Shown: positions 2,691 through 15,368 of the stretch, one piece after another | How positions within the stretch are numbered: position 1 is the first letter of the stretch | Layout: the number at the start of each line of letters is the position of its first letter | Source of the DNA: a virus | DNA: 51,663 bases | IMG/VR virus record: IMGVR_UViG_3300045988_097328 | Reading direction: 5' to 3' (one strand) | Notes under the pieces: generated by a model | Seen by the model: only the letters and a program-made list of their open reading frames with translations | What the model was told of the DNA's origin: nothing | Database searches by the model: none | Program-made: the position numbers and the translations under genes

Positions 2691-3958
2691 CGACGCTGAC
2701 GCGGGATGAAGTGTGGAACATCTGGCGATACCATCCCGCCGCCGTCGGAAGAATGTGCGGATTCCGTGACTTAACAGACGACCTTCACGGACGCTGGATG
2801 CAGCACATCATCTTCGGAGCAGAGGATTACACGCTTCAAGCGCACCGCTTATCCTACAAATCTTCCTGCCTTTCCGTTGCGCTTGCAATGTGGTGCGTTC
2901 TAAATCACGGCAAAAACGCGATTTTCATGCGCAAGACCGACAGCGACGTTGTGGAGAGCATTGCGCAAGCGAAAAAGGTATTCGCGAACGAAGCTTTTTG
3001 CTACATGGCGCAAATCCTCATGCAGCAGGATGTTCAACTGCTGAAATCAGGCGGAAACTGTATGACGGTGAGCGTGTACGATTCGCCGCGTGGCGCTGAC
3101 CAGCTAATCGGCATCGGCTGCGGTTCTTCCATGACGGGCAAGCACGCTGATTTGATTGTTTGCGACGACGTGGTAAACCTCAACGACCGCATCAGCCGGG
3201 CAGAACGAGAGCGCACCAAGGGCGTTATACAGGAGCTGCGAAACATCGTCACCCGCGACGGGCGAATCGTCTTCATCGGCACACCGTGGCACATCGAGGA
3301 CGCGTTCACGCTGGTTGCGCCGCCGGAGAAGCACGACTGCTACACGACCGGGTTGATTGTGCCGGAGAAGCTGGAAGAACTGCGGAAATCAATGTCGCCG
3401 TCTCTGTTTGCCGCGAACTACGAGTTGCGCCACATTGCCGCCGAAAATGCGCTGTTCGACACGCCGCCGACGTTCACGCCGGAAGCGGAAAAGCTGCGGG
3501 ACGGCATCGCGCACGTTGATGCTGCCTATGGCGGCGAGGACTACACCGCGCTGACGTGCGCCAAGAGGGACGGCGACACGCTGTACTTGTACGGGCGCTT
3601 GTGGCGCAAGCACGTTGACACGCTGATGGACGCACTGCAATCGGAGACGGAGCGCCTAATGTGCGCCCCGATTTACTGTGAGACAAACGGCGACAAGGGT
3701 TATTTGGCGCGGGAATTGCGCCGCCGCAATATGGCAGTACGCGCATACCCGGAGAAAATGAACAAGTACCTAAAAATCAGCACATACCTCAAAAAATGGT
3801 GGGGAAATATCGTGTTTTTGGAAGGCACAGACAGGGATTATATCGCGCAGATTATGGACTACACCGAGGACGCGGAGCATGACGACGCGCCGGACAGCGC
3901 CGCGTGCTGCTGCCGGATTCTCGACAGGAGCGGCGCGAGCTTATATGTTGGGGGGTGA
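2687..3958 (+). CDS. terL: terminase large subunit
   Basis: 423 aa; ATPase Walker-B-like HADLIVCDDVVN, nuclease region FIGTPWH...; lies between TerS and portal. Confidence 0.9.
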   Translation: MTTLTRDEVWNIWRYHPAAVGRMCGFRDLTDDLHGRWMQHIIFGAEDYTLQAHRLSYKSSCLSVALAMWCVLNHGKNAIFMRKTDSDVVESIAQAKKVFANEAFCYMAQILMQQDVQLLKSGGNCMTVSVYDSPRGADQLIGIGCGSSMTGKHADLIVCDDVVNLNDRISRAERERTKGVIQELRNIVTRDGRIVFIGTPWHIEDAFTLVAPPEKHDCYTTGLIVPEKLEELRKSMSPSLFAANYELRHIAAENALFDTPPTFTPEAEKLRDGIAHVDAAYGGEDYTALTCAKRDGDTLYLYGRLWRKHVDTLMDALQSETERLMCAPIYCETNGDKGYLARELRRRNMAVRAYPEKMNKYLKISTYLKKWWGNIVFLEGTDRDYIAQIMDYTEDAEHDDAPDSAACCCRILDRSGASLYVGG

Positions 3959-5548: not shown

Positions 5549-6459
5549 CGGACGTGGAGCGCAACGACTTGCGCGAAGCCGCACTGCAAATGCGCATAAA
5601 GGCGATGTACCAAGAGGCGCTTGATATCGCCACGGAGCGCCTGAAAGACTTCTTGCGGAAAAAGCAACAAGTGGACGATGGCAAGATAAAGCCGCCCGCG
5701 TACTACGACACGCCGGAAAAGGTAGAGCGGTGGAAAGCGGGTTTTGTCCGCGAACTCATCCGCCAATATCGCGTGGAAGAAGTCATCATGGAGGAAATCT
5801 GCAAGGCAGGGAAACGGGCAACCGACGACATCCGGAACACGATGGGCGACGTGTACGCCGACAGCTTGGGAGAGGCGCAAACCGTCATTGAGGCGCAAGC
5901 AGACCGCGCGGGTATCAAGGTGTCATTCGCGCAGCCAAACAAACGAGAAATCAAGGCGATTTTCGCCGCGAACGAGACAGCGTTCACAAAGCTGGCGTAC
6001 AAGAATCTGGGGCAGAACACCGAAATTCGCCACAAGCTGCAAAACGCGCTGGCGCTTTCGTCCACGCTGGGCGAGGACAGGAAGAAACTGATGAACCGCA
6101 TCAGCGACATCACAGGACAGAGCGAGTGGCAAGCGCGGAGAGTAGCGCAGACGGAACGGACGCGTTCACAGAGCCAAGCGAGTTATGCCGCATCGCAGGA
6201 AGCAGCAGACCAAGGCGTGACGGTCTACAATAAATGGTTTTGCCGCTTCCAGAATAGCCGTGAGGCGCATATGGCACGGCACGGCAAGATGGCGAAGCAG
6301 GGCGAGTGCTTCCCGAACAGCAACATCCGCTTTCCTGGCGACCCGAACGGAAGCGCAGCGGAAACAATCAATTGCTACTGCATGATTATGCCGAAAGTCA
6401 TCCTGTCCACCGAGTATGTAGACGCAGATGGAAACATCCGAAAGAAGGGAAAGGAATGA
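5545..6459 (+). CDS. head morphogenesis protein (Mu F / SPP1 gp7 family)
   Basis: 304 aa; ...WQARRVAQTERTRSQS... plus a C-terminal Cys/His-containing region; follows the portal. Confidence 0.8.
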   Translation: MTDVERNDLREAALQMRIKAMYQEALDIATERLKDFLRKKQQVDDGKIKPPAYYDTPEKVERWKAGFVRELIRQYRVEEVIMEEICKAGKRATDDIRNTMGDVYADSLGEAQTVIEAQADRAGIKVSFAQPNKREIKAIFAANETAFTKLAYKNLGQNTEIRHKLQNALALSSTLGEDRKKLMNRISDITGQSEWQARRVAQTERTRSQSQASYAASQEAADQGVTVYNKWFCRFQNSREAHMARHGKMAKQGECFPNSNIRFPGDPNGSAAETINCYCMIMPKVILSTEYVDADGNIRKKGKE

Positions 6460-6875
6460 GCGGCTTTGTAGACCACACGCCGGAAATCAATCAAAAGCTG
6501 GAACAGGCAATGTTTGTCGGGCTTTTGGCGGTTGCACAAGAATCCGTCGGCATGGTGCGCGAGAAGATGGTGACAGGCTATGAGCATAAGGTCTACGACA
6601 CTGGCAATCTGGCGAGAAGCATCACCGCCGACATCGACCCCGACAACAACGAAGTAACCATCGGCACAAACGTCGAGTACGCGCATTATGTACACGATGG
6701 GCACGCGGGACACGCCGTTTTCTTTCCCAAGCTGGGCGACAAAGGCGAGTTTCGCGTCATGCCGGGAGGGTACACACCAGGCAGACCGTTCATGACGGAC
6801 ACGTTCGCAGATTCCGCAAACGCGGAACGCCTTGTGGACATCATGGCGGATGTAATCAAACAAAACATGGACTAA
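6456..6875 (+). CDS. HK97 gp10-like structural protein
   Basis: ATG 6456 overlaps the previous stop (ATGA); YDTGNLARSITADI...VTIGTNVEYAHYVHDG resembles gp10-family motifs. Confidence 0.5.
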   Translation: MSGFVDHTPEINQKLEQAMFVGLLAVAQESVGMVREKMVTGYEHKVYDTGNLARSITADIDPDNNEVTIGTNVEYAHYVHDGHAGHAVFFPKLGDKGEFRVMPGGYTPGRPFMTDTFADSANAERLVDIMADVIKQNMD

Positions 6876-7007
6876 TAACAGCAACATCAGCGCATGGCAA
6901 AGAACCGCCGTGCGCTGTTTGCATATAAGCGGAAAGGCAAAGCACCGCATTTCCGCAAACAATCAAAGGCGCAAAGCACCGCGCCCCGAAGCAAAGGAGA
7001 TTGAATC

Positions 7008-7604
7008 ATGAACATCCTCACCCGGAAAAACCTGAAAGCCCTGAATGTGCCTGATGAAGCGATTGACGCGATTGTGGAAGCCCACAGCGACGCAATCAAC
7101 GACATCAAGGCGGAGCGCGACAAGTACGCGGAACAGGCGAAGCAGATTGCAGCGCTGACCACGGAGCGCGACACGCTCAAGCAGCAGCTTGCCGACGCGC
7201 AGAAGAGCGGCGGCGACGCGCAGAAGATTCAGGAGGCGTTCGATGCCTACAAGCAGCAAGTGGAAACGGAAAAGAAAACCGCGACGCTGACAACCGCCGC
7301 AAGAAAGCTGCTGACCAGCAAAGGGATGCAAGAGAAACTTGCAGACCTTGTGATGGCAAAGCGCGGACTGGACGGAATCGAACTCGACGACAAGGGCGCA
7401 ATCAAGGACGGCGACAAGCTGATTGACGCGCTCAAGGGCGAGTATGGCGACCTTTTCTCCACGCAGCAGCAGCAGGGTACACCTACCACAACCCCGCCGA
7501 GCGGCGGCAATGCCACGCACGGCAGCGGACGCGCCGCAGCACTGGCGGCGAAGTACGCGCAAGATATGTATGGCGCAGTTGCGCCGGAAGGAGCAAACAA
7601 ATGA
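7008..7604 (+). CDS. scaffolding protein
   Basis: 198 aa, coiled-coil rich (AERDKYAEQAKQIAALTTERDTLKQQL), immediately upstream of capsid genes. Confidence 0.7.
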   Translation: MNILTRKNLKALNVPDEAIDAIVEAHSDAINDIKAERDKYAEQAKQIAALTTERDTLKQQLADAQKSGGDAQKIQEAFDAYKQQVETEKKTATLTTAARKLLTSKGMQEKLADLVMAKRGLDGIELDDKGAIKDGDKLIDALKGEYGDLFSTQQQQGTPTTTPPSGGNATHGSGRAAALAAKYAQDMYGAVAPEGANK

Positions 7605-11194: not shown

Positions 11195-11521
11195 ATGAAT
11201 ACCGCAACCGCATTTGAGCAGATGGCGAACGCCATTCCGTACATCGATAAGCTGGTAAACAGCAAGGAAATGAAAGCCTTTGTTGAAGAAAAGAGCAAGG
11301 GCGACGTTGTCGGGCGCGACATCCTGATGAAGATGCTGCCGATTTTGTACGCCAAGCATCCGAAGGAAACGATGGGGATTCTCGGCGCGATGCACGGCAA
11401 GACGGCGGAGGAAGTCGCAGAAATGGACTTCACGGAAACCGCCGCCATGATGGACAAGGACACGCTCGATTCGCTGTTTGCTTTTTTTACCTTTGCGCTT
11501 CGTCTGGGGTGCATCATGTAA
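11195..11521 (+). CDS. tail assembly chaperone (G-like, 108 aa)
   Basis: position between major tail and tape measure; overlapped by a -1 frame ORF. Confidence 0.75.
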   Translation: MNTATAFEQMANAIPYIDKLVNSKEMKAFVEEKSKGDVVGRDILMKMLPILYAKHPKETMGILGAMHGKTAEEVAEMDFTETAAMMDKDTLDSLFAFFTFALRLGCIM

Positions 11522-11808
11522 TCCCTGTGCTGTACAAGTACCGCCCGCAAAACGTTCACGCGCTGGGGGTGCTTCTGGCGCACGAAACGCAGGAGGAAGC
11601 AAAACGTTGCTACATGGCTAATATGGCATGGATGACGGTGCTCGCTATTTCGTCGTTCGGCGGCGCGAATCTGGAAATCCCGTCATACAGCGACGTTTTC
11701 GGCGAAGAGAAGCACGAAACAAAGCAAAAAACAGCAGAGGAAATCTGCGACGACATTATAAACGGACTAATGGCGAAGGGAGGTGCAGAAGATGGCGGAA
11801 GCATTTGA
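11195..11808 (+). CDS. tail assembly chaperone frameshift product (GT-like, about 204 aa) made by a -1 slip at 11482-11488
   Basis: heptamer T_TTT_TTT lies in the 0 frame (GCT TTT TTT ACC); the -1 frame is open from 11488 to 11808. Confidence 0.65.
11482..11488 (+). promoter_or_regulatory. -1 programmed ribosomal frameshift slippery heptamer
   Basis: TTTTTTT positioned as X_XXY_YYZ relative to the chaperone frame. Confidence 0.65.
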
Positions 11809-12509
11809 GTTGTACGCAAGTTTTAAGATTGATACAAGCGGATACACACAGGAACTGAATAAAATCCGGCAGGAAATGGAGCAGTTTCAGCAGGAACTTA
11901 ACAGCCTTGCTATTCATCCGACGTTTGACGGCGGACGTTTTCGGACGGAATTGCAGCAAGCGAAGCAGCAGTCCACGCAGGCGACGGAAGAAATCAAGCG
12001 TTTGCAGCAGCAAATCCAGTCTTTGCAGCAAGCCGCAGACGGCGGCGGTTCTGGCGATTCGGGCGGCGGTGTGCTGAGCGGATTTTTGAGCCGCCTTGAT
12101 GTGATTGGCGATATTGCAAGCGGGCAGTTCCTTGCTAACATGGCAGTGAACGGCATAAACAGCATTATCGACGGCATCACGGGTTCGATTGACGAATCAA
12201 TCGGACTTGCGTCCGACCTTGTGGAGACGCAGAACGTTGTGGACGTGACGTTTGAAGATTCCGCGTCCACCATCAACAAGTGGGCGCAGGAGGCGCTGAA
12301 CGCCTACGGCATCACGGAAACCAAGGCGAAACAGTATTCGTCTACACTGGGCGCTATGCTGAAATCCATGGGCATTGCCGATGACCAAGTTCTCCAAATG
12401 TCAATGGATATGGCGGGTCTGGCGGCGGATATGGCGTCATTCTACAACCTCGACCACGATACGGCATTTGAGAAAATCCGCTCCGGCATCTCCGGGGAAA
12501 CAGAACCGT
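11792..12509 (+). CDS. tail tape-measure protein, exon 1
   Basis: GGGAGGTG 6 nt before ATG 11792; ends in the conserved ...SGISGETEP(L) motif; the ORF then runs into intron sequence (stop 12524-12526). Confidence 0.8.
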
Positions 12510-12777
12510 TGATTTTAGCGGCTTAACGGAGGAATCCGTTTTGAAACTGCTGGTGAACGCAAGCAAAAGCGGTGTGCATGAAAATGCGCTAACGGTAAAA
12601 CTCTAAACTTGCCAATAGCAAGCACGACAATACCGTGCCAAGCCGTCACTGACGGAAGGTGTAACGACTAATTGTAGCGTCGGGATTAGCACGACGCGAA
12701 GTGCCAGCCGCCCCCCCGAAAGGGCGAAGAGATAGTCTAATCCCCTACAAAATATCGGGAAACCGAGGGTATAAATG
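12510..12777 (+). ncRNA. group I self-splicing intron, ORF-less (268 nt)
   Basis: hand-traced P1/P10 guide pairings, P2-P9 helices, J8/7-P7 AAGAGAUAGUC, terminal G at 12777; splicing restores the tape-measure frame. Confidence 0.8.
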
Positions 12778-15368
12778 TAAAATCTTTGGGCATCAATATG
12801 TCCGTTGCGAACCTGAACGCCTTTGCCCTCGAAAAGGGCATGAATAAGGCGTTTGATAAAATGTCGCAGGCGGAACAGGCGACGCTGCGCTATCAGTATC
12901 TTCTGGAAGCCACGAAGGACGCGCAGGGTGACTTTGCGCGAACCGGGGACAGCTTTTCAAACGAAATGCGCAAGCTGCAAACGAACCTTGACCGCATCAA
13001 GACGGAGTTCGGCAAGGGGCTGCTGGGCGTTGTAACGCCCGCGATTTCGCTGCTCAACAACGTGCTGTCGGATAAATCGTACCAGCAAACGGCAATCGAG
13101 AAAATCTATTCCGAGCGGGACGAATCACTGTTTGACGCAGAAGTGGCATACCAGCGTTCGCTCACAATCGTTGATTCCATGCGGAGTATAGAGGATGAGA
13201 GCGGCGACGCAGTAAAATCCACGGAGGAATGGCGCGCCGCGCTGGAGGCCTTGAAAGACGTTATGCCGGGGTTGTCACAGTACGTCGACCTTACAACGGA
13301 TGCAATCATCGGCAACGATGAAGCCATACAGAATTACGTTGACACATTGCATGGAGTAACGAAATACAACAGCTACGAACAAGCGGAATCCGATGCGCAG
13401 AAAAGATATGATGATTTGCAGACGCAAATCGCGGAGAAAGAAGCGGATATTGCCAAAAGGGAATTGCTCATTCAAAGCAGCGACGAACTACAAAAACTAT
13501 ACGACAAGCGCGTAGAAGACGCATGGCGCACATACGCACAACGATATGGCTACGAGCCTGACTACCAAACGGCTCGTAATATGCCAGCAAGCGATGTGAG
13601 AAGTTATGGCTATGCTGTTGGCAAGGAAAATCCGTATAGCAATGTGTTAGGACTTGCATCAGGACTTAACGCTGAGCAGGTTTACTATTTCGACCTTTTC
13701 CGCAACGCACAGACAGCCGCGAAAGACCCGCTTGCACAAGAAAAAGCGGAGCTTGAAAGCGAAAAGGAAGAACTTGCAGAGCTTGTTCCGCAAGCCGAAG
13801 CAGCAGCAGTCGCACTGGACGATGTAAAGAAAAGCCGGGAGGAATATGTAAATAGCCCAGAAGGGCGCAAGGCAAAACTAAATTCCGACTTCAAAGCCGC
13901 CGTTGACGCAGAGAAGAAAGCCCTCGAAGACCTTAAGACCGCGCTGAAAGACGTGGACACCTACCGCGCGGACACGCTGAAAAAGGCGCAGGAATCCTAC
14001 AAGGGCGTTGCGTCGGGCATGGGCTACATGGTAACGCACACGCAGGAGGAAATGAAGAAGCTCCTCGATACCGATTACAGCAAGGAAAACGTGCTTAGTT
14101 GGTACGGGACGAATGCGGATGCGCTACACGCCTACAATGATGCTTTGCAGCAAGCCGAAGCGGCTGGCGTTGACGTTGGTATCTTGTCAGGGCTTACTAC
14201 ATACTCCCGCGACAACGATGCGTACCTTTCGCGTCTGCTGAACCTAACGCCAGAAGAAATCAAGCAGCTAAATGCAGACTACCAGCGCGCCCGCGACGAA
14301 GAAAACGCGATGGCGGAAACCAAAACGCGGTATACGCTGGCAAACGATGAGACGTATCAGGCGATGCTGGAAACCGTGAAAAAGTCGCTCGAAGCGTTTG
14401 AGCAAAAGGACGAAATCGCGGCATACATGGCGGAAAATAACAACTCGTTATTAGCTGGCATTGACAAGATGCGCAAGACGCTGGAAGAGGAAATCCCCGG
14501 CATAAACGCGCTTCTCGAACAGTTGGGGTTCAAGCAGATTGATTATAAAATAAAAGATAAACCGTGGGTTCATGACTATGGTGGGGCGCGTGCTGGCTAT
14601 GCTGACCTGTTCGCCGACGTTGCAAAAGATAAAAACGCCTTCAATAAAGACGAAGCAAAAGCGCTACATGCGATAAAGGCACGAGCGCGAAGCGGCTATG
14701 CGGACATGATTGAAGATGGGCTAATGCCCGACGACATCAAAGCCCGCGCGCAGCGGTGGAATCGGCTTGTCGAGATGAAAACGCAGGAAATGAACGACAT
14801 CGTTGACATTTTGGAACAGCGCATGGAGGAAAACCAGCGTCAGCGGGAAGCCGAAGAAGCGGAGCAGTGGAACAATCGAGCAACAAAAGATATGCCGCCA
14901 CTATATATGATGGACACGATTATTGCCAACGCAGCGCACCCTAAATTTGTGCCGAATACATACATCGGCGCACCTTCGAGCGAACAGCAAGAAAAAACAA
15001 CGGGCGGCAATGTTTTCTCCGCCATCGAAAGCGCCATTGACGCAGCAAAAGAAATCGAAAGTAGAACGATACAGGAAGATTTTGTAACGCAGTCTATTTT
15101 CAATGCGCTTGGAGAAATGATGGAGAACTACAAGGAAAGCCTAAGAAACAACAGCGCACCCAACATTTTTAGCAATAGCGACGGCGTTCTTTTTGTGCAA
15201 GTAACAAACCCGGGCGAAATTGCGAACGCGGTTTCCGGGCTTCCGCCAACAACCATCAATAACACATTCAGCGTGGACGGCAAAACCGTCGCAACGGCGG
15301 TTGCGCCCATTGTCAACAAGATAATCGGCAGGGGCATCCGTGGAAATCTGATGGAGGTGGCGCGATAA
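12778..15368 (+). CDS. tail tape-measure protein, exon 2
   Basis: frame continues (L)KSLGINMSVANLNAF...; long coiled-coil protein; exons 1 and 2 together give 1102 aa. Confidence 0.8.

Follow-up and report, generated by a model that had tools for sequence, protein, structure and literature searches.

The 268 nt at positions 12510–12777 of an uncultured phage genome most probably constitute a group I intron of subgroup IA type, which interrupts the gene for the tail tape measure protein (TMP; 11792–15368) of a siphovirus-like phage; judged from sequence comparison and predicted structure, the probability of this reading is put at about 0.93. The DNA analysed, called the window below, is one strand of 51,663 nt, IMG/VR record IMGVR_UViG_3300045988_097328. 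The features assigned are listed in Table 1.

Table 1. Features of the interrupted TMP gene and predicted structural elements of the intron (window coordinates)
Feature	Position	Strand	Sequence and support
TMP exon 1	11792..12509	+	239 codons and first base of a Leu codon; PHROG 1535 match
TMP exon 2	12778..15368	+	last two bases of the Leu codon, 862 codons and stop; PHROG 1535 match; colinear homologues
Group I intron, ORF-less	12510..12777	+	268 nt; empty site, RF00028, insert homology, covariation
P1	12506..12521	+	CCGU of the exon and UG (12506-12511) / UAGCGG (12516-12521); sequence, Rfam alignment
P10 guide	12511..12517	+	GAUUUUA; pairs with exon 2 UAAAAUC (12778-12784), seven contiguous Watson-Crick pairs
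P2 hairpin	12526..12539	+	ACGGA-GGAA-UCCGU; covariation at 12527/12538
P3, 5' strand	12549..12553	+	GCUGG; pairs with 12704-12708
P3.1 hairpin	12558..12571	+	CGC-AAGCAAAA-GCG; between P3 and P4, flanked by invariant UGAAC and GGUGU
P3.2 hairpin	12574..12589	+	GUGCAU-GAAA-AUGCGC; second hairpin between P3 and P4
P4	12592..12597 / 12631..12636	+	ACGGUA / UACCGU; encloses P5 (domain 12592..12636)
P5	12608..12612 / 12618..12622	+	CUUGC / GCAAG; loop CAAUA; present in MFE fold
P6	12638..12659	+	CC (12638-39) / GG (12658-59) and CCGUC (12643-47) / GACGG (12651-55); both segments covary
P7, 5' strand	12664..12670	+	A12664, bulged C12665, GACUA (12666-12670); pairs with UAGUCU (12733-12738)
P7.2-like hairpin	12677..12697	+	GCGUCG-GGAUUAGCA-CGACGC; between P7 and P3 3' strand
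P3, 3' strand	12704..12708	+	CCAGC; directly 3' of conserved GAAGUG
P8 hairpin	12709..12726	+	CGCCC-CCCCGAAA-GGGCG; all 5 pairs changed on both sides
J8/7 and P7, 3' strand	12727..12732 and 12733..12738	+	AAGAGA and UAGUCU; nearly invariant in alignment; fits RF00028 consensus GAAGAUAUAGUC
P9 domain	12742..12769	+	CCC (12742-44) / GGG (12767-69), internal loop, UCGG-GAAA-CCGA (12755-12766)
Terminal G (omega G), 3' splice site	12777	+	sequence; fits the empty site of two relatives

The gene is split into two reading frames. The first runs from GTG 11783 to 12526 and is closed by a TAA (12524–12526) five codons past the start of the insert, so that translation of unspliced RNA would yield a 244 amino acid fragment; the second long ORF runs from 12786 onwards in another frame. 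Joining 12509 to 12778 gives a single frame that reads ...SGISGETEPLKSLGINMSVANL... (in other renderings of the junction, ...GETEPLKSLGINM... and ...KIRSGISGETEPLKSLGINMSVANL...) and reproduces the protein of 1102 amino acids predicted by the sequence-only reading of this DNA when counted from ATG 11792, or 1105 from GTG 11783. The former start is the one seen in relatives, whose TMPs begin with MAEAFELY. Exons 1 and 2 match consecutive stretches of one profile (positions 108–292 and 295–395, respectively, of PHROG 1535, 'tail length tape measure protein'), which points to a single TMP gene; both exons also match PHROG 8462. The neighbourhood (major head, major tail, TMP, Dit) has the major tail gene upstream and Dit downstream of the TMP. 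When the spliced core was used as a tblastn query, 481 of 484 phage records aligned as one unbroken piece that covered at least 80% of the query and included the junction (tape measure annotation is stated for the records listed among the 484). Metagenomic protein homologues with 52–66% identity are likewise uninterrupted and read SGISGETEPLKQLGINMSVANL. The motif in which the break lies, the most strongly conserved of the TMP, runs on uninterrupted in homologues, and both the identity of the interrupted gene and the expected colinearity at the EPLKSLGI junction are borne out. Searches of the spliced TMP against Pfam returned spurious coiled-coil matches only and against NCBIfam only a weak phage-tail match far under cutoff; no relative was found when genome contigs were searched for a host with exon 1.

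Downstream of the major tail gene and ahead of the TMP come two short overlapping ORFs (11195–11521 and 11509–11808), the second of which is overlapped by the start of the TMP at 11792. This is the usual place of tail assembly chaperones with a programmed frameshift.

The boundaries of the insert are set by relatives without it. Two 49.4-kb sequences, one viral contig and one metagenome contig (L134 and L135), whose TMP DNA is 89% identical to that of the window, contain exactly the ligated sequence GGGGAAACAGAACCGT|TAAAATCTTTGGGCAT. The proposed splice junction, 12509|12778, is matched to the letter, and the stops, ORFs, coordinates, 268-nt length and base-paired strings quoted in the sequence-only reading were all present and complementary as claimed. 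A T|T repeat at the junction leaves an ambiguity of 1 nt in boundaries that are otherwise exact to the nucleotide. The 3' end of a group I intron must be G, and 12510–12777 was chosen because no other option is consistent with the empty site while ending in G.

The second type of intron-less relative (L001, a Logan contig from ERR4086721) encodes a TMP that is 98% identical in protein sequence, and its site is scrambled: the alignment of 1546 bases holds 75 mismatches, 10 of which cluster between −9 and +10 of the junction, and the flanks are free of mismatches for a further 40 to 70 bases in each direction; at the target, 10 of 20 bases are changed versus about 4% elsewhere. It is no clean reference, since its TMP is called as several short ORFs. 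Its TMP frame (66–2630) seems broken, and either error-rich sequence or a decaying copy is possible.

When a 1801-nt query was compared with 50,697 phage records, the insert alone matched cultured phages. Interrupted genes, among them terminase, recA and nrdD (the nrdD example is from Enterococcus), are the sites of these matches, next to CDSs that carry the annotation 'mobile intron protein' or 'group I intron protein'. RF00028, applied to a 501-nt stretch, gave an end-to-end match of 18.4 bits (E = 0.023), in which the J8/7–P7 segment GAAGAGAUAGUC (12726–12737) aligns with the AAGAUAUAGUC-like consensus. This score is under the gathering cutoff of 50 bits, so that the Rfam check proposed with the sequence-only reading gave a full-length match with J8/7 and P7 on consensus at a score below threshold; scans of the whole window with Rfam, at gathering thresholds and by E-value, reported nothing. 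Four relatives located in interrupted genes served as a control and scored 32.2, 24.1, 20.1 and 40.9 bits, all <50, which indicates that the low score reflects the model rather than the element. The family to which the intron belongs can be recognized by the pattern UGAAC-hairpin-GGUGU-hairpin-GCUAACGGU, found in at least 119 viral contigs, from which 36 distinct ORF-less members were taken for tests of complementarity. No further copy was found within the window by an nhmmer profile and core motifs.

Several signatures of the family can occur close together: a 102-kb viral contig (L084, IMGVR_UViG_3300043080_000589) has three P3–P4 signatures within 1.4 kb (6028–7413), which suggests several introns packed in one gene, and another locus (L012) carries two copies about 500 nt apart. 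Staphylococcus phage PMBT8 (locus L007, 22–281) contains a different group I intron, well over threshold at 101 bits with RF00028, between two pieces of an N-acetylmuramoyl-L-alanine amidase CDS; the record carries no intron annotation for it.

The secondary structure was examined by comparison of relatives. Starting from 15 aligned sequences, RNAalifold found unaided P3, the two hairpins between P3 and P4, P4, P6, the hairpin between P7 and the 3' strand of P3, and P8, with compensatory change in 27 of 38 pairs. The structure as finally counted over these 15 sequences has 89% paired cells and 30 pairs changed on both sides; its covariation score is 0.505 versus 0.08–0.11 for slid controls, and none of 500 shuffles reached it. 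The insert also folds better than 200 of 200 shuffled sequences (z = −2.46), and the MFE fold holds the P2, P4, P5, P6, P3.2, P7.2-like and P9 tetraloop hairpins together with the P10 pairing.

P3 was assigned to 12549–12553/12704–12708 because the 5-nt segment that precedes UGAAC is fully complementary (5/5) to the one that follows the conserved GAAG(U/C)G in 36 of 36 distinct members, in many sequence versions; in the 15-sequence alignment this helix is 100% paired with all 5 pairs changed on both sides. P3.1, a recognized optional group I helix, is 95% paired with two of three pairs changed on both sides. The four variable pairs of P3.2 (a label coined here) are all changed on both sides, the hairpin being GUCGUC-GUAA-GACGGC in the recA intron of Bacillus phage 0305phi8-36. 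P4 (99% paired, last pair covarying) and P7 (five invariant pairs) are nearly invariant and so give little covariation signal, the exception in P7 being the 12664–12738 pair (AU in 10, GC in 3 and UA in 2 sequences). P7 is pseudoknotted with P3. For the P7.2-like hairpin, 24 of 36 members have a complementary 5-mer at the corresponding location, with 20 versions of the stem, and RNAalifold finds a helix with compensatory changes (columns 179–184/198–203); the assignment rests on the anchor-based count, since MAFFT misplaced the window's own 5' strand. The closing stem of P8 is retained in 34 of 36 members (24 versions), and P9 has six covarying versions among the 23 members that share the 3' domain. 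The length of the C-run in the P8 loop (12710–12717 in the window) varies by several bases among near-identical relatives, a difference that may stem either from true slippage at the homopolymer or from noise in the assemblies.

Comparison of the eight copies at this TMP site, window and L002 included, gives the same picture: paired positions that vary all covary or keep a wobble, the remaining variation lies in loops and joining strands, and neither the P10 guide nor the exon bases engaged in P1 and P10 vary. Positions 12527 and 12538 of P2, for instance, switch together (C-G in three copies, U-A in five).

Much of the fold traced by hand in the sequence-only reading agrees with this structure, namely P1 with its U.G pair, P10, P2, P4, P5, P6, P7, J8/7 and the terminal G, and so does its overall conclusion of a group I intron, given the empty site, the homology of the insert and the covarying core. 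Other helices had to be replaced. The pairing proposed as P3 (GCGCUA/UAGCGU, 12586–91/12675–80) is 69% paired across relatives with no compensatory change, its GCGC belonging instead to the covarying GAAA-capped hairpin P3.2. One of two extra hairpins placed between P3' and P7' (12689–12704) is 62% paired without compensation, the conserved hairpin being 12677–12697; the other (12709–12726) exists as a helix, which is P8. In P9, the CCC at 12742–44 has GGG 12767–69 as its partner and not the GGGA at 12757–60. As to subgroup, the assignment to IA is safe, and the earlier comparison with IA holds loosely, although the details differ: in the window copy, P3 and P4 are separated by two hairpins, and P7 and P3' by a single one, where two (P7.1 and P7.2) are the mark of IA2. 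P7.1, present in many relatives, is missing.

These data bear on three other explanations. That the insert is no intron at all, but an assembly artefact, an element for translational bypassing or a non-coding stretch that separates two genes, is effectively refuted by the empty site and the covarying core. Such explanations would account for the two ORFs that gene callers annotate, yet the empty site in L134/L135 is precise, the insert has a covarying group I core and is homologous to inserts in interrupted phage genes, and the same insert recurs in many independent assemblies; by inference, 268 nt is also far beyond known bypass gaps. Alternatively, the element might be a decayed relic that no longer splices, the TMP being either a pseudogene or made as two polypeptides (exon 1 extended by ILAA, and a product restarted at TTG 12786). 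The lack of an endonuclease in the window copy corresponds to the stage of the homing cycle at which decay begins, the RF00028 score is low, and splicing itself is predicted from sequence. However, all core elements are intact with pairing preserved across the eight same-site copies, many independent assemblies contain the interrupted form, on contigs of up to 52–54 kb (∼39 protein clusters, also from independent assemblies, stop at the identical end of exon 1), no convincing ribosome-binding site is visible by eye ahead of TTG 12786, and the break falls within a motif that homologues keep continuous. A splicing-dead relic is accordingly regarded as very improbable.

Somewhat less remote, though still unlikely, is a group I intron that needs a protein cofactor from host or phage and is not truly self-splicing. 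Many group I introns require chaperones or maturases in vivo, and this one is small and lacks P7.1; against this, the related phage IA introns of T4 td, Twort and SPO1 self-splice in vitro.

If the preferred reading, a functional group I intron, is correct, P1 with its U.G pair, the 7-bp P10, the site in P7 and a terminal G are all in place for the standard two-step splicing initiated by guanosine. By analogy with the established group I pathway, the pre-mRNA would fold into the P1–P9 core, and exogenous guanosine bound in P7, the presumed guanosine-binding helix, would attack after U12509, held in P1 as a wobble with G12518. The guide 12511–12517 would then line up exon 2 through P10, the freed 3'-OH of U12509 would attack after G12777, and the ligated exons would encode the continuous 1102 amino acid TMP.

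As the sequence-only reading stated, the window copy has no ORF and no homing endonuclease gene (its P5 loop is 5 nt), and for lack of that gene it should be unable to home alone. Six of the other same-site relatives are likewise ORF-less. The exception is L002, which has the same intron at the identical site (exon 1 82% identical) with a 261-aa ORF in the P5 loop; this ORF has a GIY-YIG domain (25 bits versus a Pfam cutoff of 22.6) and a stretch resembling the NUMOD region of I-HmuI, just under cutoff. The P6 of L002, CCAACAA/UUGUUGG, is fully compensated relative to that of the window. Upstream of its ORF (3833–3880) are an extended −10-like sequence, TGTGATATAAT, a GAGGTG ribosome-binding site and a TTG start, so this endonuclease may have its own expression signals.

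One lineage thus contains four states: the cognate empty site (L134/L135), the diverged empty site (L001), the ORF-less intron, and the intron with a GIY-YIG gene (L002). From their sequences, these states would fit the intron homing cycle. The site also seems to be a recurrent target: in a more distant TMP (L036, IMGVR_UViG_3300048923_000238, minus strand, ∼3270–3640 of the reversed locus), which reads ...FTGETESL|KDLGVVMTQ..., a related ORF-less intron lies 1 nt off the insertion position of the window intron, which points to the GETExL|K motif. The P1 of this intron, read by eye as exon GCCU/GGGC, is re-matched to its own exon and would be compensatory.

It is doubtful that the intron is more than a neutral passenger, and two roles can be considered. 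The in-frame stop lies five codons into the intron, within the P1/guide region, so translation and splicing may compete; if they do, splicing efficiency would set the ratio of full-length TMP to the 244-aa N-terminal fragment. The other role lies in rivalry among co-infecting phages: if intron and endonuclease act there, rivals with an L134-type empty site would be converted or excluded, and scrambled targets of the L001 type would be escape variants.

The claim that a group I intron in a TMP gene, with no homing endonuclease, is unusual does not hold, since group I introns have been described at three TMP sites in prophages of the Bacillus cereus group (Tourasse and Kolsto, NAR 2008; PMC2504315), and the find is in this respect ordinary. 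The introns TMP-IVS1, IVS2 and IVS3 of lambdaBa01-like prophages, some of them without a complete homing endonuclease gene, are similar to the present one in being IA-type introns at conserved TMP sites with P1/P10 adapted to the target. They are classed there as IA1 or IA2, whereas the window intron has two P3–P4 hairpins and no P7.1; they occur in Bacillus prophages, whereas the window phage is uncultured and possibly gut-associated. The TMP family and insertion site appear to differ as well. Several other papers that mention both group I introns and tape measure proteins do not describe introns in TMP genes. TMP introns being known already, what is new here is the phage lineage and the apparently recurrent site.

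Outside TMP genes, a close known relative is the recA intron of Bacillus phage 0305phi8-36 (EF583821; 'coding region interrupted by a mobile intron'). From P3 to P6 it shares 88% identity with the query, counted over the part that matches, and it has the same UGAAC-hairpin-GGUGU-hairpin-GCUAACGGU layout with P3 and P3.2 compensated. It differs in residing in recA, in having an endonuclease ORF upstream of P3 and a longer P7–P3' region, and in its 3' domain; it is a partial match to Bacillus introns described with IA3, or with IA1 and IA3, features. The 3' part of the window intron (J8/7, P7', P9 domain and last bases) is 91–92% identical to that of inserts in the terminase genes of Enterococcus phage EH93P1 and Staphylococcus phage Romulus. 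The EH93P1 match (91%) is the gap of a split terminase gene, and the Romulus insert adjoins a CDS annotated 'group I intron protein'. Both differ from the window intron in their location (the terminase large-subunit gene), in carrying ORFs and in their P1/P10 guides. The ORF of EH93P1 ends immediately ahead of the P4' strand, a place occupied in L002 by the endonuclease.

The intron of T4 td, whose homing enzyme I-TevI joins a GIY-YIG nuclease to a DNA-binding region of the NUMOD type, has an in-frame stop early in the intron and its ORF in the P6 region. L002 fits this pattern with its ORF in the P5 loop, whereas the window copy has no ORF and no detectable sequence relationship to td beyond the shared core consensus.

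These findings leave knowledge of how group I introns work unchanged; their consequences are for annotation and detection. In a widespread lineage of uncultured phages, the TMP is annotated by gene callers as two 'hypothetical' ORFs, and the ∼39 public protein clusters mentioned above are really exon 1 fragments. RF00028 at its curated threshold misses this large family, and many split phage genes would be found with a model built for it. The lineage with its four states also offers a compact natural system for the intron homing cycle.

One further TMP-like gene of a cultured phage contains related intron sequence. In Streptococcus phage Javan271 (MK448723; locus L008, ∼1560–2760), two CDSs annotated 'minor tail protein' form a split gene that reads ...QGFAKGNFT / MLDNLKLG / YGGSREEMQRLL..., where, with boundaries read by eye, a mini-exon of ∼22 nt seems to separate intron sequences.
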